This document shows positions 10,654-28,908 of a DNA stretch of 64,000 nt, one piece after another. The position numbers were made by a program, and so were the translations under genes. Origin of the DNA: an uncultured Actinomycetes bacterium (lineage in GTDB: Bacteria > Actinomycetota > UBA4738 > HRBIN12); NCBI GenBank assembly GCA_963775755.1, contig CAVZKB010000001.1, positions 80,011-144,010 of the forward strand, in the 5' to 3' direction. A model generated the notes under the pieces. It saw only the letters and a program-made list of their open reading frames with translations. It made no database searches and had not been told where the DNA came from. The number at the start of each line of letters is the position of its first letter. Position 1 is the first letter of the stretch.

Positions 10654-11283
10654 TCAGGCGAGTTGACCGTGGACCGTGGTGACGTCTCCGTGCTGGAACT
10701 TCGTCCCCCTGTGCCATGGCGTCCCGAGCGCGGGGAGCGCGAACCGGTCGAGCCCGTAGTAGCCGGCGTTCCGCCAGGCCAGGATCAACAGGACCTCGAC
10801 AACAAGGAACACCGGGTTCACGCCGGCGACACCGGCCAGGCCGAACGAGAAGTTCAGCATGGCGCCGAAGAACGCCGCGATCCCGACGAACAGGCCGAGG
10901 ATCAACGCGATACCGATGGCCGCCTCGGCGATCGGGATGACCTTGGAGAAGACCCCCGCGGGGCCGGGGTGCCCCAGCCAACGCAGGAACGCCGCGTACC
11001 ACCCGTAGTTGACCGACGAGTTCGCGCCCTGGCCCGCGTTGCCTGCCGCGTAGGCGGCGAACCCCTGCAGCCCCTTCGTGCTCCTGAACCAGGAGTCGCT
11101 CGTGTACGCGAAGTGCCAGGTCCAGAACCCACCTCCGGTGCCGGTGATCTTCTCGAAGCCTGCATGCAGCCACTGGTAACCGAGCCACACGCGCGCCACC
11201 AGCCACAGCCATGCGGCCGCGGGAGAGGAGAGGAGCCACACCGCGAACCTCGGCTCCTCGAACGTCACTTCCTGCTTCTGCAT
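10654..11283 (-). CDS. DoxX family membrane protein
   Basis: four predicted TM helices, Trp/Tyr-rich loops, DoxX-like layout. Confidence 0.55.
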   Translation of the reverse strand: MQKQEVTFEEPRFAVWLLSSPAAAWLWLVARVWLGYQWLHAGFEKITGTGGGFWTWHFAYTSDSWFRSTKGLQGFAAYAAGNAGQGANSSVNYGWYAAFLRWLGHPGPAGVFSKVIPIAEAAIGIALILGLFVGIAAFFGAMLNFSFGLAGVAGVNPVFLVVEVLLILAWRNAGYYGLDRFALPALGTPWHRGTKFQHGDVTTVHGQLA

Positions 11284-11379
11284 CGCTCCCACCTCCCGTC
11301 TCTACCTTGGGTAAGGCTGAGCGAGATCGGGCGGGCGGACAGCGGGCGAAGGGCCCGGTCCAGGGGGGTCTTTCGCTCC

Positions 11380-14124
11380 CTACCGGGTCTGGCTCGCGGC
11401 GCGGCTCGAGAAGGGCGTCGCCGGACGTGAGAGCTGCAGGCGCAGCCGCGTATCGACGACGCGCACGCCGTGCGGCAGGACCATGACGGGATTGCAGTCC
11501 ATCTCGGCGATCTCCGGATGCGCGTCGGCGAGCGCACCGACACGCAGGATCGTGTCGAGGAGCGATCCCACATCCGCCTTCGGCGCCCCGCGGAACCCGT
11601 CGAGGAGCGGGAACGAAGCCAGCGAACGGACCATCTCGTCGGCGTCGAGATCGGTCAGCGGCGCCACGCGGACCGCCACGTCCCGCTGCAGCTCCACGGT
11701 GACGCCCCCTCCCCCGCACGCGACCACGGGCCCGAACACCGGATCGGCCACGACGCCGACCAGCATCTCGACGCCGCCGTCGATCTGTTCCTGGAGCGTG
11801 AAGCCGTCCACCCGCTCTCCGGCAGCCGCCACCCGGTCGGTCATCGCCCGGGCCTCGTGGAGCACGTCTGGCGCCGACAGGCCGATCCGCACGGCACCGG
11901 ACTCGGTCTTGTGGAGCGGTCCGATCCCCTTCAACACGACGCGGCCCTCGAACGTCGCCGCCGCCTCCGAGGCTTCCTCGGGGGTAGAAACCCTGCGCGT
12001 GCGCGCCATCTTGATGCCGTAACAGGCGAGCAGCTGTTCGGCCTCCTCCGTGGGGAGCCACCCCTCGCCTCGCGCGAGCGCGGTGGCGATCAGCGCCGCC
12101 GCCTCGTCCTCACGGAGGTCGTCGAAGACGGGAACCGTTCCCTCGGGGCGGGCACGCCACGTGCCGTATCGCGCGGCGCGCGCCAGCGCGATCGCCGCCT
12201 GCTCCGGGTAGCGGTACGAGGGGATCCTGGCGCTCGGGGCGCGCAACGCGTCGGGGAGCCCTCGTGCCGACATGAAGCAGGAGAGCACCGGGATACGACC
12301 GTCGATCTCGGCGATGGCGTCGACGAGCTGACGCGCGACCTCGGGCGCCGCGGCTTCGAGCGGCGGGATGTAGATCACGATCAACGCGTCGATCCCCGCG
12401 TCGCTCGCGACGGCCTTGATGGCCCGCCCGTAGTCCTCGGGTGCGGCCGACGCGATCAGATCGACGGGGTTCGAGACAGATGAAGCCGCCGGAAGGAACG
12501 AACGGAGCTCCGTCACCGTCTCGGCGCTCAGCTCGGGGACGTGGAGACCGTGTGATTCGGCCGTGTCCGCGCAGAGGATCCCCAGTCCGCCGGCGTTCGT
12601 CACGATGGCGGCGCGGTTCCCGGCCGGTATGGGCTGGTCGGCGAGGAGCGTCGCCACGTCGAACAGCTGTCCGAGCGTGTCCGTGCGGATCACACCGCTC
12701 TGCCTGAAGAGCGCGTCGACGGTGGAGTCCGACGCGGCGAGCAGCGCTCCCGTGTGTGACATCGCCGCACGACTTCCGGCCGGACTGCGCCCGCTCTTCA
12801 CGGCGACGATCGGCTTGCGCTTGCCGATCCGCCGGGCCAGTTTGGCGAAGCGTCGAGGGTTCCCGAACGACTCGAGGTACATCAGCACGACATCCGTGTT
12901 GGGGTCCTCGTCCCAGTAGCTGAGGAGATCATTCCCGGAGATGTCGGCCTTGTTCCCGACGGACACGAACGTCGACAGACCCAGCCCGAGCTCCGCGGCC
13001 TGCCCCATCACGGCGATGCCGAGGGCTCCACTCTGCGAGAGGAAGCCGACGTGCCCCGGCGGCGGCCAGGTGGTCGCGAACGTGCCGTTCAGCAGCACCT
13101 CCGGATCCGTGTTCACCACACCCATGCAGTTGGGTCCGATCAGGCGCATCCCGAACGCGCGGCACACCTCGACGAGTTCGTGCTGGAGGGACAACCCCTC
13201 CGGGCCCGTCTCCCCGAAGCCGGACGAGATCACCACCAAGCCGCGCACGCCCTTGTCTCCGCACTGGCGCGCCACCGGGATCACGAAGGCGGCGGGGACG
13301 GCGATGAACGCCACGTCGACGGGGCCGGGGACGTCCAGCACGCTGGGGTAGGCCGCGATGCCCTGCACGACGGCCGTCTTCGGATTGACGGCATGGACCA
13401 CGCCCGCGAACGGCGGGGCGAGCAGGTTGTGCAGGAGCCGCCCGCCGATCGAGTCGGGGTTCCGGGAGGCGCCGATGACCGCGACCGACGACGGCTGGAT
13501 CATGGCACGGATCGCGTTCGCGGCAGCGACCCGTTCACGACTCTCATAGGCCTCGAGCGCCTCTTCGGTCAGCGCGGTCGGGAACTCCACATCCACCGCG
13601 CCGGGAGTCACGCGGAGGTGCACGGCGAAGCCGCTCGCGCGGAAGACGTCGATCATCCGATGGTTCTCGGGCAGCACGTGCGCGTGGAAGGTGGTGATGC
13701 CGTTGTGCCTGGCGGCGTCGGCCAGGTGCGCGACCAGGATCGACCCGAGTCCGTGACCCTGGAGCGCGTCGGCGACGCTCACGCTGACCTCCGCCCGCGC
13801 CGCACTACCCTCGCTGATGTACTGGGCGCCCCCGATCACGTCACCGGCCTCGCCGTCGGCGATCGCCAGCAACGTGAGGTGATCGAGGTAGTCGATCTCC
13901 GTGGCGCGGCGGGCCATCTCGCTCACGTCGACGGACACACCGCCGAACCGCAGGTAGCGTGTCTCATCCGAGAGACCGATGAGATAGTCCTCGACCCGCT
14001 CTCGATCGTCGAGGCGCGCGGGACGGATGCGCACCGTCGCGCCGTCGCGAAGGACAACATCGACCGCTCGGTGCGCCGGATAGTCGGGGGGGATGTCGTT
14101 CATGACGGTGTCACTACTCGACAC
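11380..14124 (-). CDS. GNAT acetyltransferase fused to acyl-CoA synthetase (NDP-forming) alpha/beta domains (protein acetyltransferase Pat-like); alternative start at 14103
   Basis: N-terminal GNAT (…LRFGGVSV…HVLPENHRMIDVFRASGF), CoA-binding domain (VAVIGASRNPDSIGG), succinyl-CoA-synthetase-like ligase and ATP-grasp segments through C-terminus. Confidence 0.75.
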   Translation of the reverse strand: MSSSDTVMNDIPPDYPAHRAVDVVLRDGATVRIRPARLDDRERVEDYLIGLSDETRYLRFGGVSVDVSEMARRATEIDYLDHLTLLAIADGEAGDVIGGAQYISEGSAARAEVSVSVADALQGHGLGSILVAHLADAARHNGITTFHAHVLPENHRMIDVFRASGFAVHLRVTPGAVDVEFPTALTEEALEAYESRERVAAANAIRAMIQPSSVAVIGASRNPDSIGGRLLHNLLAPPFAGVVHAVNPKTAVVQGIAAYPSVLDVPGPVDVAFIAVPAAFVIPVARQCGDKGVRGLVVISSGFGETGPEGLSLQHELVEVCRAFGMRLIGPNCMGVVNTDPEVLLNGTFATTWPPPGHVGFLSQSGALGIAVMGQAAELGLGLSTFVSVGNKADISGNDLLSYWDEDPNTDVVLMYLESFGNPRRFAKLARRIGKRKPIVAVKSGRSPAGSRAAMSHTGALLAASDSTVDALFRQSGVIRTDTLGQLFDVATLLADQPIPAGNRAAIVTNAGGLGILCADTAESHGLHVPELSAETVTELRSFLPAASSVSNPVDLIASAAPEDYGRAIKAVASDAGIDALIVIYIPPLEAAAPEVARQLVDAIAEIDGRIPVLSCFMSARGLPDALRAPSARIPSYRYPEQAAIALARAARYGTWRARPEGTVPVFDDLREDEAAALIATALARGEGWLPTEEAEQLLACYGIKMARTRRVSTPEEASEAAATFEGRVVLKGIGPLHKTESGAVRIGLSAPDVLHEARAMTDRVAAAGERVDGFTLQEQIDGGVEMLVGVVADPVFGPVVACGGGGVTVELQRDVAVRVAPLTDLDADEMVRSLASFPLLDGFRGAPKADVGSLLDTILRVGALADAHPEIAEMDCNPVMVLPHGVRVVDTRLRLQLSRPATPFSSRAASQTR

Positions 14125-14779
14125 TGCCGGGGGTCGTCGTGTGGCGGGCGAGGTACGCGGCGGCTTCCGCGCGGCGCGCGACCTCGAGCTTGGACAGGAT
14201 GCTGGAGACGTAGTTCTTGATCGTCTTCTCCGCCAGCTTGAGCTCCTCCCCGATCTCCTTGTTGGTCCGGCCGTCGGCGACCAGTGCCAGGATGCGCTCC
14301 TCCTGCGGCGAGAGACGGGCGAGCTTCTCGTCGTTCATCAGATGTTTGCCCTTGCGGAGCCGATCGAGGACGGACTTGGTCACCGCCGGATCCAGAAGGC
14401 TCTCCCCGGCGCCCACGGCGCGGATCGCACGCAGCAGGTCGTCCGATCGCACCTGCTTCAAGACGTAGCCCGAAGCCCCCGCCATGATCGAAGCGAACAG
14501 CGCCTCGTCGTCGGCGAACGATGTGAGCATCAACACCTGCGTCTTGGGGTGCTTCGCGCGGATCTCCCTGGTCGCCTCGATCCCGCTACCGTCGATCAAG
14601 CGGACGTCCATCACGACCACGTCCGGGCGCGTGCGGTCCGCCTCATCGATCGCATCGTGCACGGAACCGGCCTCGGCCGTCACGACGATGTCGTCCTGCG
14701 ATTGGAGCATCGCTCGGATGCCGTCCCGCACGATCTGATGGTCGTCGACCAGCATCACTCGCAGCGGTGGTTGCTTCAT
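14114..14779 (-). CDS. NarL/FixJ family response regulator (REC + LuxR-type HTH)
   Basis: MLVDDHQIVRDG...DVVVMDVRL...; C-terminal LSPQEERILALVADGRTNKEIGEELKLAEKTIKNYVSSIL. Confidence 0.9.
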   Translation of the reverse strand: MKQPPLRVMLVDDHQIVRDGIRAMLQSQDDIVVTAEAGSVHDAIDEADRTRPDVVVMDVRLIDGSGIEATREIRAKHPKTQVLMLTSFADDEALFASIMAGASGYVLKQVRSDDLLRAIRAVGAGESLLDPAVTKSVLDRLRKGKHLMNDEKLARLSPQEERILALVADGRTNKEIGEELKLAEKTIKNYVSSILSKLEVARRAEAAAYLARHTTTPGSVE

Positions 14780-14789
14780 AGGGGCAATG

Positions 14790-15290
14790 CTAGTCGGCGG
14801 TTGCAGGGGCGTCCCGCGCCTCGTCCATATCCGTCTCGGCGCCGAGCATGAGGGCGTCGGCGACCCGGTCGAGGAAATCCTTGAGGGTGGCCTCCGCGAT
14901 CCGGTACAGGACGGTGCGGTCGATCGCGTGGCCGATCGGACCGAGCGGAGGGACGTAGCGGGCGCTCATGGCGAGCTGCGTCCGGTTCGATCCCAGCGCC
15001 GCCACTTCGAGATCGGCCTCCAGCGCGGGGAAGAGCCCTGCCGCACCGGTCGGCACCCATCGGAGCGGCATCACCGTCTTGCCCCGTGTGTGGACGGGGT
15101 CCCCGAGCTCGATCGCGACCTGACGCGCCACGCGGACCCGTCCGCCGAACCCGACGTCTGCGAGGAGCATGTCACCGCGGTAGTTGGCCTCGCTGGCCAG
15201 CCCTGGGAGCCAGTCCGCCGGGGCACGCGCCAGCGCGCGTTCGATCGATTGCGGCCCGATGGGAAGCTCGACGAAATAGCGCGCGAACAT
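14790..15290 (-). CDS. hypothetical 166-aa protein between histidine kinase and response regulator (start at internal ATG, MFARYFVELPIGPQ...)
   Basis: Upstream part of track ORF 14790..15731 is Ser/Arg-rich junk; downstream 166 aa have balanced composition; possibly SRPBCC-like fold (inference only). Confidence 0.45.
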   Translation of the reverse strand: MFARYFVELPIGPQSIERALARAPADWLPGLASEANYRGDMLLADVGFGGRVRVARQVAIELGDPVHTRGKTVMPLRWVPTGAAGLFPALEADLEVAALGSNRTQLAMSARYVPPLGPIGHAIDRTVLYRIAEATLKDFLDRVADALMLGAETDMDEARDAPATAD

Positions 15291-15372
15291 GTGTCGATCG
15301 TCGCAGGCCACGGTGCGCTTCGCCGGGGCCGTTCGACCCGGACACGTCAGGACGGTCGGCCCCCGCCTGACG

Positions 15373-16515
15373 TCACAGCGGCAGGACCGCGCGAACGGTG
15401 GTGCCCTCCCCCAGGCTGCTCGTGATGTCGAGCGAACCGCCGAGTGACGCGACTCGGTCGCGGAGGTTCCCGATACCGAGGCCCTTCCCGCCGGTTCCGG
15501 GCTCGAAACCGCGGCCGTCGTCGTCGATCTCCAGGATGGCCCCCTCCACGCCCCTGCGGAGCGACACGCGACAGGTCGTGGCCTCGGCGTGCCGGCCGAC
15601 GTTCGAAAGAGCTTCTCGCGTGACCTGCACCACATCAGAGGCGATCGAGGCGAGCTCGGCGGCGACCGCTTGGTCGATGTCCACCACCGTGACCACCCCC
15701 GAACGCTCCTCGAACTCGGCGCCGAGCTCACGCAGCGCCTGACCCAACTGGCGATCGGCCAAGATCCCGGGCCGCAGTCCGAAGATGTAGTTGCGCAGAT
15801 CGCGTATCGCGTCGTCGATGTCCTCGACCGCGCCCTCGATCCGTCCTGTGATCCCCTCGTCCTGTGCCATCGCGGCGGCGCCTTGCAGACTCATGCCGAC
15901 GGCGAAGAGCGACTGGATCACGCCGTCGTGAAGCTCCTTCGCGATCCGCTCGCGCTCGTCCATGACCTCGAGTCGGCGGATCTCGTCTTGGGCCCGGAGC
16001 ATCTCGTCGTACAGGCGCGCGTTCTCGACCGCCACCCCCGCCTGCGTGGCCAGCACCTGGAGCCCGCGCTCATCATCGATCGAGAACTCATCCGCCCCTT
16101 GCTTGTCGGTGACGTAGATGTTCCCGAACACCTTTCCCCGGGCGACGATGGGCGATCCGAGGAGCGAGTGCATCGGCGGGTGATGGGGTGGGAACCCGAC
16201 CGACTTGGGGTGGGCGGAGAGGTCCTTGAACCTGAGCGGACGAGCCTCGGAGATCAGCAGACCCAAGATCCCGTGGCCGGTCGGAAGGTCGCCGATCTTG
16301 GCTCGATCCTCATCGGTGATCCCCTGGGTGATGAACTCCTCGATGCTCCCATCGGGGCCCAACACGCTGATCGCGCCGTACCGAGCCGCGGTGATGCCGA
16401 CCGCCAACTCGACGATGCGATGCAGGATGGCGATGAGCGACCGCTCCGGAGCCAGAGCCAAGCCGGCCTCGATCAACAGATCGGCCCGATAGCGATCCTG
16501 CAACCCGTCGGCCAC
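15373..16515 (-). CDS. GAF-domain sensor histidine kinase (HisKA_3 + HATPase_c), NarL-partner type
   Basis: GAF region (…YGAISVL…GILGLLISEARPLRF…), H-box ELHDGVIQSLFAV, G-boxes DDGRGF / GKGLGIGNLRDRV. Confidence 0.85.
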   Translation of the reverse strand: MADGLQDRYRADLLIEAGLALAPERSLIAILHRIVELAVGITAARYGAISVLGPDGSIEEFITQGITDEDRAKIGDLPTGHGILGLLISEARPLRFKDLSAHPKSVGFPPHHPPMHSLLGSPIVARGKVFGNIYVTDKQGADEFSIDDERGLQVLATQAGVAVENARLYDEMLRAQDEIRRLEVMDERERIAKELHDGVIQSLFAVGMSLQGAAAMAQDEGITGRIEGAVEDIDDAIRDLRNYIFGLRPGILADRQLGQALRELGAEFEERSGVVTVVDIDQAVAAELASIASDVVQVTREALSNVGRHAEATTCRVSLRRGVEGAILEIDDDGRGFEPGTGGKGLGIGNLRDRVASLGGSLDITSSLGEGTTVRAVLPL

Positions 16516-16565
16516 ATCGGGAGCCTAACGTGGAGGAACGATCGCCACCCACGAGCCGAGCCGAA

Positions 16566-16579
16566 GGGTCTTTGGACCC
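16566..16579. promoter_or_regulatory. GGGTC-N4-GACCC palindrome 50 nt upstream of the kinase start, candidate NarL-family (DosR-like) autoregulatory box
   Basis: perfect 5-4-5 inverted repeat gggtctttggaccc in the 310-nt divergent intergenic region. Confidence 0.3.
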
Positions 16580-16825
16580 GCGATGTGGGTGCCGTTCGGA
16601 CCGAGCGAGCCGGGTCCGGTCGGAACACACTGCCCGGAGGGGAAGGGGGTGACACCGATGGTTTGCTCCGATGACGATCCGATCTTGACGGGCAAGATCG
16701 CTCTGGCGCATCTCAGGGAACTCCCTGACTATTACGCTCGGCTCGAAGAGATGGAACATCGCGCCGCGAACACGCCGTTGTCGAGGCACCATCGACGCGG
16801 TGTCGGCTGAGAGGGGCATGGAGCT

Positions 16826-17320
16826 ATGCGCGTGATGGTCGCGTGCGCGAGCAAGCACGGTTCTACCGAGGGGATCGCCCAGGCCATCGCGGAGCGGTTG
16901 CATCAGCTCGGCCATGAGACCGTGGCGGTGCGCGTATCGGACGTCACCGACCTCCTCGGCATCCAGGCGATCGTCCTCGGGAGCGCGATCTATGCCGGTT
17001 CGTGGATGAAGGAGGCAACCGAGTTCGCGAAGGCCCACGCCGAGACCCTTTCGGCCATGCCGGTGTGGCTCTTCAGCAGCGGGCCCCTGGGCACGGAGAT
17101 CGAGGACGAGGAGGAGCAGCCGCGACAGCTCGCGGAGCTCAGGGAGACGCTCCGGCCGAGGGCCCATCGCATGTTCTTCGGCAAGATCGACCGCAGCGCC
17201 CTCGGGTTCGGCGAGCGGATGATGATGAAGGCCGTGAAAGCGCCCGAGGGCGACTTCCGCGACTGGAGCGCCATCGCCGGATGGGCGGACGAGATCGCAG
17301 AGGAGCTCGAAGGTCCCTGA
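16826..17320 (+). CDS. flavodoxin-like domain protein
   Basis: MRVMVACASKHGSTEGIAQAIA... flavodoxin-like FMN-binding loop. Confidence 0.65.
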   Translation: MRVMVACASKHGSTEGIAQAIAERLHQLGHETVAVRVSDVTDLLGIQAIVLGSAIYAGSWMKEATEFAKAHAETLSAMPVWLFSSGPLGTEIEDEEEQPRQLAELRETLRPRAHRMFFGKIDRSALGFGERMMMKAVKAPEGDFRDWSAIAGWADEIAEELEGP

Positions 17321-24981: not shown

Positions 24982-25389
24982 TCAGATGAACGTCGGCGAT
25001 CCGGCGGCTTCGAGGAAGAACGACGCAACGCCCTCCTGCCCGTCGATGAGCGGATCGAGGTTCTCCGTGACGAGGCCGAGCATCTCCATCGAATGCGAAC
25101 ATGCGTGGATGCTCACCTCGCCGATCTGCTTCGCCTGCTGGAGGGTCTCGCTCCAGTGTTGGCCGCCCTGACGCTCCATCGCCGCGCGCCCTTCGTCACC
25201 GGACTCGGGAGCCGCGCCGTGGTCCTTCAGGATCCGGTCGGCCCGGAATGCATCGAGCGCCCAGTACTGGACGAGGATGTGCACCTCCCGACCCATGGCC
25301 GCGGCGCCCGCCACCAAGATGGCTGCGGCGCTGAGCTTGTCGTCCGTCCCCGAGAACAGGACGAGGGAAAACGTGTCGGTCTCGCTCAT
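24982..25389 (-). CDS. DsrE/DsrF/DsrH-like family protein
   Basis: 135 aa, DsrE fold with conserved Cys (SIHACSHSMEMLG). Confidence 0.6.
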   Translation of the reverse strand: MSETDTFSLVLFSGTDDKLSAAAILVAGAAAMGREVHILVQYWALDAFRADRILKDHGAAPESGDEGRAAMERQGGQHWSETLQQAKQIGEVSIHACSHSMEMLGLVTENLDPLIDGQEGVASFFLEAAGSPTFI

Positions 25390-25516
25390 GCGTTCCTCCT
25401 TGAGTCACTCCCCGTGAGCTTGTCGGAGGGCGCTACGCACGGCATGAGGCGTCCGACCCTGCGTTCGAGGGCCGCATGTCCTTGCGAGAGGAGAAACCCC
25501 GTTCGCGACGGCTGGT

Positions 25517-26254
25517 TCAGCCGATCGAGGATGCGAGTGTTCGTGTCAGGCCGTCGGCCGACGCCGCCTCAGCGATCAGGCGGGCCGACTCCTCGTACGA
25601 CAACAGATCCGTGTTGATCACCATGTGGTAGAGGAGCGGGTCGTCGATGTCTTTGCCGAAGTACTTCTTCACGTATCGCATCCGCCCGAGATCATTGTCG
25701 CGAACGTAGGCCGACGCTTCCTCGAGGCTGAGGTGCTTGTACTCGCAGAGATGCTCGATCCGCTTCGCGGTCGACCCCACCAGACGGACATGGAAGGCGT
25801 AGTCCAACTTGCTGGTGACGATGTTCGCGCCGCGACCGATCACGATGATGTTGCCGAGCTCCGCGAGGTGCAGGATCGTGTCCGCGGTCTTCCTCACCAG
25901 CGTCCAGTGGGATGGATGCAGCCCGAACAGCGCATCGAGCGTGTCGGACATCTCCGAGACGCGATCCTCCGGCATGAACCTTTCGAGCCGTTCAGGCAGG
26001 TCGTGATCCTTGAGCACCCGCTCGACCAGGTTCCGATCGAAGATCGCCCAGGGGCGCGAGGTTGCGCTGATCGGGCCCTGGAGTCGCGCGACGAGCTCCT
26101 CAGCGACGGTGTGTGCGCCCGCGCCGGCCTGCCGGGAGATCGTGATCACGCGCCGATGGGGATCACCATGTGGCTCCGAGGACGGCGTGTGCGGCATCTG
26201 GAGCTGCGAGTTGATGAACCCACGATAGTGCTCGAAGTTGCCGGCCGTATCCAT
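25517..26254 (-). CDS. cytidylate kinase-like family protein (P-loop); start at internal ATG (MDTAGNFEHY)
   Basis: VITISRQAGAGAHTVAEEL P-loop-like, cytidylate kinase-like family layout. Confidence 0.55.
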   Translation of the reverse strand: MDTAGNFEHYRGFINSQLQMPHTPSSEPHGDPHRRVITISRQAGAGAHTVAEELVARLQGPISATSRPWAIFDRNLVERVLKDHDLPERLERFMPEDRVSEMSDTLDALFGLHPSHWTLVRKTADTILHLAELGNIIVIGRGANIVTSKLDYAFHVRLVGSTAKRIEHLCEYKHLSLEEASAYVRDNDLGRMRYVKKYFGKDIDDPLLYHMVINTDLLSYEESARLIAEAASADGLTRTLASSIG

Positions 26255-26595
26255 GCCGTTCACCCCTTCGAGGACGATGCATCGTCCTCCGACACCAGCG
26301 TGCGCTCGTGGACGACGGACTGGCCCGGGTCTTCGGACCCGCGGTCGAGGGGACCCACGACCCTGCGCCGGCATCATCCGCCATGGCGTCGGCGCACGGT
26401 ATTCGGCAGGTGGCCCCGACGCGCGACACCTCGGCGCAGGTGGACCCGGTTCGGCAGCTGGCCCCATCGACGGTCCGGCCAGAACCTCCGCCCCATCGCC
26501 TGGATGAAGCTCTTCGTAGGTCTCATCCAGTCTCCCTCCTTCGCCGGGCCGGGCGCCGTCTGACGAGGATCGACGCCCGGTCTCCGACGAGCTTG

Positions 26596-28294: not shown

Positions 28295-28774
28295 CTATGC
28301 GGCCTCGACGTGCGGCGTCGTGACCGCGATCTCTCTCACGGGTGGAGCCTCGAGCTTGGTGATGGGCTCGGGGACGACGACCTGAAGGACCCCGTCCTCG
28401 TAGGTGGCCGTGATCGTAGACTCGTCGACCCCGTCGGGGATCGGGATCCGCCGCTCGAAGGCACCGTAGGCGCCCTCCATCCGGTAGTAGGTTCCTTCCT
28501 CGACCTCTTCCTCGTGACGGCGCTCGCCCTTGATCACGAGCTCGCCGTTCTCGACGGCGACCCGAACGTCCTTCGCCGGGTCGATCCCCGGGAGCTCGAC
28601 CCGCACGACGAAGTGCTCGTCGCGGACCAAGACGTCGACCGCCGGTACGAACGGGCGTTGCACGAACAGCGGCAACGCGGGGTACGCGAGCCGTGCGCGA
28701 TTGCCGAACACGCTGTGCAGCACCTCATCCATCCGCCGCTCCAACGTGCCGATCTCCTCCCAGTAGCCACGCAT
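28295..28774 (-). CDS. Hsp20/alpha-crystallin small heat shock protein; likely start MRGYWEEI
   Basis: alpha-crystallin domain (…FVVRVELPGIDPAKDVRVAVENGELVIKGER…AFERRIPIP…). Confidence 0.85.
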   Translation of the reverse strand: MRGYWEEIGTLERRMDEVLHSVFGNRARLAYPALPLFVQRPFVPAVDVLVRDEHFVVRVELPGIDPAKDVRVAVENGELVIKGERRHEEEVEEGTYYRMEGAYGAFERRIPIPDGVDESTITATYEDGVLQVVVPEPITKLEAPPVREIAVTTPHVEAA

Positions 28775-28908
28775 CGTGACCACCTCCCTGGAGCGCTTCG
28801 CTCCGAGCCCACCGTAGGTCGGGGCGTCTGGGATCACCACGGGCGTGGGGCCCGCGTCGTCCGGGTCGAGGGTCCCCTTAAGCCGGGACCGGTGCGAACA
28901 GGGACGGA

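Follow-up and report, generated by a model that had tools for sequence, protein, structure and literature searches.

Introduction

DevS/DosT-DevR is the best-studied dormancy switch of Mycobacterium tuberculosis, and both the reading of redox state by DevS, a protein of ~578 amino acids (aa), and the non-regulatory gene that leads the devR operon are still debated. DevR needs at least two Dev boxes in tandem, with centres at -42.5 and -63.5 at tgs1, and Rv3134c-devRS is autoregulated in M. tuberculosis (PMC3177182). The non-pathogenic soil actinobacterium Streptomyces coelicolor has a DevRS orthologue, OsdK/OsdR (SCO0203/0204), with several stress genes that carry boxes in the neighbourhood of the regulator gene, in the stress island SCO0167-0219, and the OsdR consensus is AGGGCCGATCGGCCCT (PMC5069765). 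Here we analyze 64 kb of genome (the window; contig CAVZKB010000001.1, positions 80,011 to 144,010, 66-73% GC throughout) from an uncultured Actinomycetes bacterium of soil, in which a DevS/DosT-like histidine kinase gene, an open reading frame (ORF) for a 166-aa protein and a DevR/DosR-like regulator gene follow one another (Table 1). This Actinomycetota locus is a variant of the known DosR-type system and not a new type of system. There are precedents for the type of system, its box and the logic of tandem boxes; the one-GAF kinase, the split and apparently leaderless genes, the regular promoter grammar and a partner from an unclassified SRPBCC family are new.

Compared with the M. tuberculosis system, the window encodes a GAF domain 48-52% identical to those of DevS and DosT, a HisKA_3 core, and a NarL-family regulator 44% identical to DevR with the same DNA-reading helix; it also has tandem GGGxC...GxCCC boxes with the proximal one at -42.5, and an alpha-crystallin gene among the predicted targets. 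As in Rv3134c-devR-devS, a non-regulatory gene lies behind the boxes and directly upstream of the regulator gene, the leading gene being one for a universal stress protein (USP; Rv3134c) there and for an SRPBCC protein here. However, the kinase has 380 aa with one GAF domain rather than two and without the ~60-residue N-terminal extension of DevS, and its gene lies upstream on a promoter of its own rather than downstream in the operon. The boxes are spaced by 23 bp rather than 21, the central base of the half-site is variable (A, T or C), and all three genes appear to be leaderless. In S. coelicolor, osdR-osdK form a two-gene operon without an intervening gene, and no SRPBCC partner has been reported. 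A third, non-enzymatic gene next to a HisKA_3 kinase and a NarL-family regulator, in a locus under its own regulator, is also characteristic of LiaFSR and VraTSR, and VraR ranks second among the structural relatives of the window regulator. The accessories of these systems, LiaF and VraT, are membrane proteins on envelope-stress membrane kinases, whereas the kinase and its partner are predicted to be soluble here, and the partner, whose interaction is hypothetical, has an SRPBCC fold.

Conservation of the triad and its promoters

A scan of a genome collection with the family profile of the 166-aa protein gave 80 loci, all of them from uncultured Actinomycetota but for one bin; the related loci or contigs compared with the window are designated by L-numbers (L001 etc.). 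The exceptional bin (L019, JBLMXP010000031.1) contains a typical triad on a contig labelled as a metagenome-assembled genome (MAG) of a 'Planctomycetaceae bacterium', which is probably a binning or labelling error. The gene order that an earlier note on this DNA had described, with gaps of 82 nt between kinase gene and ORF and of 10 nt between ORF and regulator gene, was found again in the window. Wherever a locus offers sufficient sequence, the 166-aa gene has the kinase gene upstream of it and the regulator gene as its immediate downstream neighbour (triad synteny 80/80). The same note had named absence of the ORF from syntenic loci of relatives as a refutation of its reading; the ORF is present in all of them, and the reading is not refuted on this point. 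The regulator is the most conserved member of the triad, with 82-98% identity across loci, followed by the kinase with 62-84% and the 166-aa protein with 53-81%.

The upstream regions of the 80 sequences were aligned on the start codon of the 166-aa gene. A proximal box, GGGNC-N4-GNCCC, starts at -51 to -48 in 76 of the 80 loci (50 perfect), against 0.58 expected from the per-position background, and a distal box with at most one mismatch is located at -74 to -71 in 44/80, against 0.6 expected. In the window, both tandem boxes and the ORF hexamer lie inside the 82-nt spacer between the kinase gene and the ORF. With a leaderless transcript, as suggested by the geometry, the proximal box would occupy, at -42.5, the position of the primary Dev box at tgs1. 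It also agrees with the OsdR consensus. The distal box of the window, GGGCCGACCGTCC, nearly equals the OsdR site GGGGCCGACCGTCCCT of SCO0200 (PMC5069765). Most distant homologues of the 166-aa gene also keep a box ~50 nt upstream, namely GGGTCTTTGGACCC at -49 in L090 and GGGACCTTTGACCC at -52 in L084, with further boxes at -50 in L087 and at -49 in L093. By the conservation of these sites, the 166-aa SRPBCC gene is the regulator's most conserved predicted target. The earlier note had pointed to a palindrome reminiscent of DosR boxes upstream of the kinase gene; the DosR/OsdR type was recognized correctly, but the conserved boxes of the system, in the 82-nt spacer, had been missed.

Hexamers resembling a -10 element precede all three genes. 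Upstream of the ORF, an NANNNT hexamer with its T at -10 to -5 is present in 79/80 loci, and a Shine-Dalgarno (SD)-like 4-mer was found in only 3/80. The kinase start is preceded at 6-8 nt by TA[GC][GTC]CT in 72 of 74 sequences (73 loci and the window), with no fixed box; direct reading of the window kinase promoter revealed no box at the 37-nt offset that is typical of the six box-pair promoters described below. For the regulator gene, TA[GC][CG]AT lies 6-8 nt before the start in 60/81 loci, and a perfect box is found upstream in 1 of those 60. None of the three genes has a Shine-Dalgarno sequence, and in each of them the hexamer lies 6-8 nt before the start. A conserved -10-like hexamer next to each start codon suggests leaderless transcripts, with putative transcription start sites at the kinase, ORF and regulator genes, and suggests that leaderless mRNAs are common in the lineage. 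The kinase gene and the ORF are separated by 69-253 nt in 36/79 loci, and by a reversed multicopper-oxidase gene of ~1.5 kb in 42/79. Rather than a single operon, the genes probably form three leaderless units, of which only the 166-aa unit would depend on boxes.

Kinase, regulator and 166-aa protein

Pfam assigns GAF (25-164), HisKA_3 (187-250; PF07730, 6.8e-15) and HATPase_c (294-380; PF02518, 3.1e-12) domains to the kinase. When compared by phmmer against PDB, the GAF domain matched DosT (2vzw; E 1.5e-42, 52% identity, residues 26-171) and GAF-A of DevS (2w3d/2y79; E ~2e-39, 48% identity). The motifs PHHPPM and NIYVTDK align with YHPPM and TLYLTDK of DevS. Among the tblastn segments covering each motif, the xHPPM histidine is kept in 68/68 and the tyrosine of NIY(V/L)T(D/E)K in 76/78, and we take these two residues to be the counterparts of the heme ligand His149 and the distal Tyr171 of DevS. 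The phospho-histidine motif ELHDGV is kept in 75/76 segments. The two-GAF architecture (GAF-A and GAF-B) was not found in the window kinase, whose single GAF domain joins straight onto the HisKA_3 helix; having one GAF only, the kinase is a minimal variant and not a canonical DevS/DosT. In agreement with the earlier note, which had described a single-GAF DevS/DosS-like HisKA_3 kinase, its sequence identifies it as a DevS/DosT-like, predicted soluble kinase with a single DosT-like GAF domain of the heme type. We infer heme binding by this domain, and the identity of its signal, from the sequence.

The regulator contains Response_reg (PF00072, 2.3e-26) and GerE (PF00196, 6.9e-17) domains. Its best match among solved structures is DevR (3c3w; 2.1e-50, 44% identity), with VraR (3.6e-44) and NarL (5.7e-32) as runners-up in PDB. 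The recognition helix reads LAEKTIKNYVSS in the window and LAEKTVKNYVSR in DevR, with AEKTIKNYVS kept, and the helix LAEKT(V/I)KNYVSSILSKL is almost invariant in 78/79 loci. Lys179, Lys182 and Asn183 of this helix are the DNA-contacting residues of DevR, and the window regulator keeps them. The regulator, noted earlier as NarL-type, is by its sequence a DevR/DosR-like response regulator of the NarL family.

The 166-aa protein has no Pfam match at E<=1 and no NCBIfam match. A word-indexed search gave 796 homologues at E<=1e-3, and an exhaustive search by profile brought up 2180 clusters (50% identity), of which 934 were below 1e-10. All named homologues, including those from a cluster look-up of ten distant members, are annotated as 'hypothetical protein', their sources being metagenomes or MAGs of Actinomycetota. 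The aligned relatives share an invariant N-terminus, MFARYF, and the family motifs are MFxRYF, LFPxLEADLE and YxPPLGxxGxxxDRxLLHRVAEATxKxF. Judging from these comparisons, the ORF is a real and widespread gene.

AlphaFold2, given a 24-sequence alignment, returned a model with a predicted local distance difference test (pLDDT) score of 81 and a predicted template modelling (pTM) score of 0.79. The predicted layout of one strand, two helices, six strands and a long C-terminal helix is that of a helix-grip fold, and a Foldseek search concurs with the SRPBCC fold. Seven of 25 distant family members match Polyketide_cyc2 (PF10604; best E 5.8e-7), and the family profile gave only a marginal match among PDB sequences, to the SRPBCC protein 2pcs (E 0.007). 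According to the model, the protein has a divergent SRPBCC (START/Bet v 1-like) fold and belongs to an unclassified family, so that the SRPBCC fold guessed in the earlier note was right at the level of the fold. The superfamily includes PF10604, the ZhuI/TcmN cyclases, CoxG, Bet v 1 and PYR/PYL, and the window protein differs in having no match to a curated model and motifs of its own. It most likely binds a small hydrophobic ligand. A full-text search of the literature library found no paper linking DosR with SRPBCC and no SRPBCC family as a DosR-type target, and the titles and abstracts of the matches listed held no precedent for an SRPBCC protein combined with a histidine kinase and a response regulator.

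Reach of the partnership

Two complete copies of the triad are present in four MAGs (L004/L007, L022/L048, L032/L046 and L023/L056). Among the distant homologues of the 166-aa protein (35-49% identity), the regulator gene is divergent and the single-GAF kinase gene convergent in L081, L088 and L090, and L093 has the order oxidase, 166-aa homologue, regulator. In L092 the homologue stands between a pair of USP genes, with hydrogenase-maturation and ferredoxin genes close by; two-component genes are absent for 6 kb around it. The remaining contigs with distant homologues are too short to show the neighbourhood.

In the reverse test, the regulator was searched against metagenome contigs and up to 3.5 kb were fetched on each side. 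Regulator relatives with at least 79% identity have the SRPBCC gene almost always directly upstream (25 adjacent). Other orders were SRPBCC gene, kinase, regulator (L141) and an SRPBCC gene convergent on the kinase gene, followed by the regulator gene (L156). A further 33 more distant regulator relatives (57-84% identity, one above 76%) have no SRPBCC gene within the fetched sequence, and about half of them show a kinase gene too; the partnership is therefore limited to a clade. By these comparisons, the SRPBCC gene is a constant companion in one large clade and recurrent elsewhere, and not universal in single-GAF DevS-like systems.

The palindrome and the divergent flavodoxin genes

The earlier note had drawn attention to a perfect GGGTC-N4-GACCC palindrome about 50 nt upstream of the kinase gene, and the palindrome is indeed there, 50 nt before the GTG codon. 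This perfect form occurs twice in the window (16566 and 26327), whereas dinucleotide shuffles contain 0.27 on average and 4/100 of them reach 2. The form with one mismatch is not enriched in the window (12 observed versus 8.5 expected). A 22-nt weight matrix built from 79 proximal boxes had its top matches in promoters when the window was scanned, but the counts were not above those in shuffles and the matrix scan was rejected as statistical evidence. Since the loose motif is not enriched, the case for function rests on conservation and promoter geometry and not on the count.

In the five closest loci with divergent genes, the palindrome column is conserved in L001, L003, L005 and L006 and degenerate in L004. 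It varies symmetrically in relatives (GGGTCC...GACCC, GGGTCC...GGCCC and GGGCCT...GGCCC). In the window, L001, L003, L005 and L006, the palindrome lies 44, 72, 52, 52 and 51 nt, respectively, from the kinase -10. On the other side, the palindrome is always 23 nt from a proximal partner box, and the start of this partner box is always 37 nt from a hexamer, CA[CG]A[CA]T, whose separation from the boxes is constant across the window, L001, L003, L004, L005 and L006; the same 23/37-nt spacing occurs at the promoter of the 166-aa gene. In the window this hexamer is CACACT and precedes the SD sequence and ATG codon of a DUF5661 gene, which is followed by a flavodoxin gene. The DUF5661-flavodoxin pair is syntenic in L001 and L003-L005, and L006 keeps the flavodoxin gene. 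As the distance to CACACT is fixed and the distance to the kinase -10 is variable, the palindrome was assigned to the divergent DUF5661-flavodoxin promoter, of which it appears to be a real distal box. The kinase operator proposed in the earlier note was a candidate that we dropped after this comparison of distances among relatives (44-72 nt to the kinase -10, with an invariant flavodoxin geometry). An additional effect of the palindrome on the kinase gene is possible, and a box of at least 11 bits lies within 110 nt upstream of the kinase -10 in 25% of loci versus 0% of coding controls. The DUF5661 protein of the window has an N-terminus ~55 codons shorter than in L001, L003 and L005 and matches positions 34-65 only of PF18905.

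Predicted local regulon

Box pairs spaced 22-24 nt and with no more than 3 mismatches over both boxes were sought across the whole window. The search gave 22 tandem box pairs versus 10.6 +/- 4.0 in Markov resamples, and 0/200 resamples reached 22. Each of the six best pairs precedes a gene in the arrangement box, 9 nt, box, 23 nt, NANNNT, with an offset of 37 or 38 nt from the first base of the proximal box to that of the hexamer. The genes behind them are the 166-aa gene, the DUF5661 gene with the flavodoxin gene, a cytidylate-kinase-like gene, a DsrE-like gene, a DoxX gene and an Hsp20/alpha-crystallin gene. The best box pair of the window, that of the cytidylate-kinase-like gene, consists of two perfect boxes, GGGTCTTCGGACCC and GGGACCCACGACCC, at a spacing of 23 nt. 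Alpha-crystallin (hspX) is the emblematic DosR target in mycobacteria, and its gene behind a box pair gives independent support to the boxes as sites of the regulator. The dormancy-type genes with box pairs in the window are those for Hsp20 and flavodoxin, and USP genes stand beside the distant homologue in L092.

Proposed mechanism and alternatives

We favour, with some reserve, a DevS/DevR-type switch in three transcription units, in which the SRPBCC gene is a target with possible read-through feedback. The kinase would be expressed from its own leaderless, box-free promoter (TAGGCT) and the regulator from its own leaderless -10 (TAGCAT). Low O2, NO, CO or a reduced state would switch the kinase on, and the phosphorylated regulator would then bind the tandem boxes at -42.5 and -65.5, an arrangement that phosphorylated DevR uses for promoter activation in M. 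tuberculosis, and induce the SRPBCC gene. Read-through over the 10-nt gap may continue into the regulator gene and raise regulator synthesis, a positive feedback as in Rv3134c-devRS of M. tuberculosis. The same regulator would drive at least five further promoters of identical architecture in the window, its binding to the boxes being predicted from their sequence. Several points weigh against this scheme. For this organism, the start sites, box binding and induction are all predictions. The window boxes upstream of the ORF are imperfect compared with GGGTC/GACCC, the proximal one having a central C and the distal one ending in CCT, and their centres are 23 bp apart compared with 21 bp at tgs1 of M. 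tuberculosis. The box motif carries little information in DNA of 69% GC, and single boxes are not enriched across the window. The regulator gene has its own -10 and no SD sequence, which makes the read-through feedback uncertain. The 33 regulator relatives without an SRPBCC gene nearby count against it as well, and the preservation of the neighbourhood through rearrangements and the co-duplication of the triad exceed what a plain regulon member would show and lean towards an accessory function.

Such a function, in which the SRPBCC protein would be a signalling accessory that binds a hydrophobic ligand (quinone or lipid) and contacts the kinase or the regulator to modulate phosphotransfer, is a tentative alternative, in line with the co-sensor or accessory suggested in the earlier note, to which we give clearly less weight. 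Box control would then be feedback on the sensor itself. LiaF and VraT act in this manner, plant PYR/PYL receptors of the SRPBCC fold control PP2C phosphatases in a comparable one, and the two readings are not mutually exclusive. The persistence of the neighbourhood keeps the idea of signalling feedback alive, since at least five gene orders place the SRPBCC gene beside those of a single-GAF kinase and a NarL-type regulator and the whole triad has been duplicated together in four MAGs. Regulator relatives of at least 79% identity nearly always carry the SRPBCC gene directly upstream, many charged residues are invariant in the close 166-aa family, and the next-best structural relatives of the regulator are of the VraR/LiaR type, which are partners of accessory proteins. 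However, the interaction is a hypothesis only, and the best-persisting feature of the gene is its upstream box, the mark of a target gene. The homologue in L092 lies between two USP genes away from any two-component genes within 6 kb, and the 33 related loci without an SRPBCC gene nearby indicate that it is not needed for such kinases to signal. To our knowledge, DevS and DosT of M. tuberculosis require no SRPBCC-like partner either. In a more specific version, which we consider unlikely, the protein is a ligand-loaded co-sensor for a soluble kinase that could not reach the membrane unaided: it would take up a membrane-derived hydrophobic molecule, for example menaquinone/menaquinol as carried by CoxG, or a lipid, and pass this molecule or what it signals on to the kinase or regulator. 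If true, respiratory-chain redox would be integrated with gas sensing in a soluble three-component DosR-type switch with its accessory under feedback.

The model implied by the earlier note, in which kinase, 166-aa gene and regulator form a single operon and the palindrome 50 nt before the kinase gene serves for autoregulation, is now improbable. Both the window and 36/79 loci have the three genes in collinear order with only short gaps, the palindrome is perfect and at 14.5 bits the second highest in the window, and a quarter of the loci have a box of at least 11 bits upstream of the kinase -10 while coding controls have none. Yet the box lies at variable distances from the kinase -10 and the fixed 23/37-nt geometry points to the divergent CACACT, and the centre of the palindrome is at -57.5 from the kinase start, 15 bp beyond the -42.5 of the proximal boxes of the six pairs. 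A reversed gene, that of the oxidase, splits 42/79 loci, and each gene, the ORF and regulator genes among them, has its own conserved -10-like hexamer. That the 166-aa gene is an unrelated passenger and its boxes chance GC-rich palindromes is hardly credible. Single-box matches are indeed not enriched in the window and the motif is short and GC-rich, but the position-locked boxes in 76/80 loci compare with 0.58 expected, they are retained where protein identity drops to 35-49% and where the gene order differs, six promoters have the identical 37-38-nt offset to NANNNT, and synteny holds in 80/80 loci.

Judging from this locus, uncultured soil Actinomycetota, or a large group of them, would rely on a stripped-down version of the DevS/DevR system, with a soluble one-GAF kinase, leaderless genes and a very regular promoter grammar of two boxes 23 bp apart and a proximal box that starts 37 nt before the -10. 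Its candidate constant companion is an SRPBCC family of ~2,000 clusters at 50% identity without a Pfam or NCBIfam model. The locus offers testable sites, a minimal kinase for biochemistry and a candidate protein, the ligand of which could reveal what these bacteria prepare for as oxygen falls. Should the SRPBCC protein prove to be only a target, the locus extends known biology neatly but goes no further.

Other features of the locus

Table 1. Positions of genes, boxes and hexamers in the window, with the multicopper-oxidase gene of the related locus L001.
Feature	Position	Strand	Description
Histidine kinase gene	16515 (GTG)..15373	minus	380 aa; Pfam GAF, HisKA_3 and HATPase_c
-10-like hexamer TAGGCT	16522..16527	minus	6 nt before kinase GTG
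166-aa ORF	15290 (ATG)..14790 (TAG)	minus	SRPBCC-fold protein (predicted), unclassified family
Distal DosR-type box GGGCCGACCGTCCT	15349..15362	minus	centre -65.5 from ORF ATG
Proximal DosR-type box GGGTCGAACGGCCC	15326..15339	minus	centre -42.5 from ORF ATG
-10-like hexamer GACGAT	15297..15302	minus	6 nt before ORF ATG; starts 37 nt after proximal box start
Regulator gene	14779 (ATG)..14114	minus	221 aa; Pfam Response_reg and GerE
-10-like hexamer TAGCAT	14787..14792	minus	overlaps ORF stop; 7 nt before regulator ATG
Perfect GGGTC-N4-GACCC palindrome GGGTCTTTGGACCC	16566..16579		minus-strand reading GGGTCCAAAGACCC; ends 50 nt before kinase GTG
Proximal partner box GTGCCGTTCGGACC	16589..16602	plus	2 mismatches; GTGCC-type like many distal ORF boxes elsewhere
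-10-like hexamer CACACT	16626..16631	plus	DUF5661-flavodoxin unit
DUF5661 gene	16658-16810	plus	PF18905, 1.2e-10
Flavodoxin_5 gene	16826-17320	plus	PF12724, 1.1e-24
Pat-like protein gene	11380..14103	minus	N-terminal GNAT and ADP-forming acyl-CoA synthetase-like domains (Pfam, NCBIfam)
DoxX membrane-protein gene	11292..10654		box pair 11343-11379; CAGCCT hexamer at 37-nt offset
DsrE-like gene	25389..24982		next after cytidylate-kinase-like gene; box pair 25446-25482
Cytidylate-kinase-like gene	26254..25517		PF13189; box pair 26327-26363
Hsp20/alpha-crystallin gene	28774..28295	minus	PF00011, 8.5e-23; boxes 28876..28863 (perfect) and 28853..28840 (one mismatch); TACGGT at 37-nt offset
Multicopper oxidase gene	L001 4475-5947	minus	lipoprotein-like; Cupredoxin_1, Cu-oxidase_3 and Cu-oxidase_2; weak match to TIGR02376 (copper nitrite reductase)

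An Rfam scan of the whole window gave no family, and a generic scan for sigma-70 promoters and intrinsic terminators in 14000-16900 gave none, with a consensus that is ill-suited to high-GC actinobacteria. The RNA of the spacer between the kinase gene and the ORF folds with z = -2.1, without a T-tract.

The multicopper-oxidase gene of the related loci is divergent from the 166-aa gene, and the box region is common to both; the oxidase gene may be co-regulated. Since the oxidase gene is present in all closest relatives, the window has probably lost it, probably via a deletion that spared both boxes.

The box pair of the DoxX gene lies directly after the stop codon of the Pat-like gene, which itself begins 10 nt past the regulator stop codon and encodes a protein of ~907 aa with a GNAT domain resembling that of mycobacterial Pat. 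A regulator gene followed directly by the Pat-like gene was found only in the closest relatives (L001, L003-L007 and L013). K182 of DosR is described as a core DNA-binding lysine (PMC5999986), and in M. tuberculosis acetylation of this residue blocks DNA binding (PMC5999986, PMC5861037). The equivalent of Lys182 is present in the window regulator (AEKTIKNY), and a link between the Pat-like enzyme and acetylation of the regulator is a speculation.

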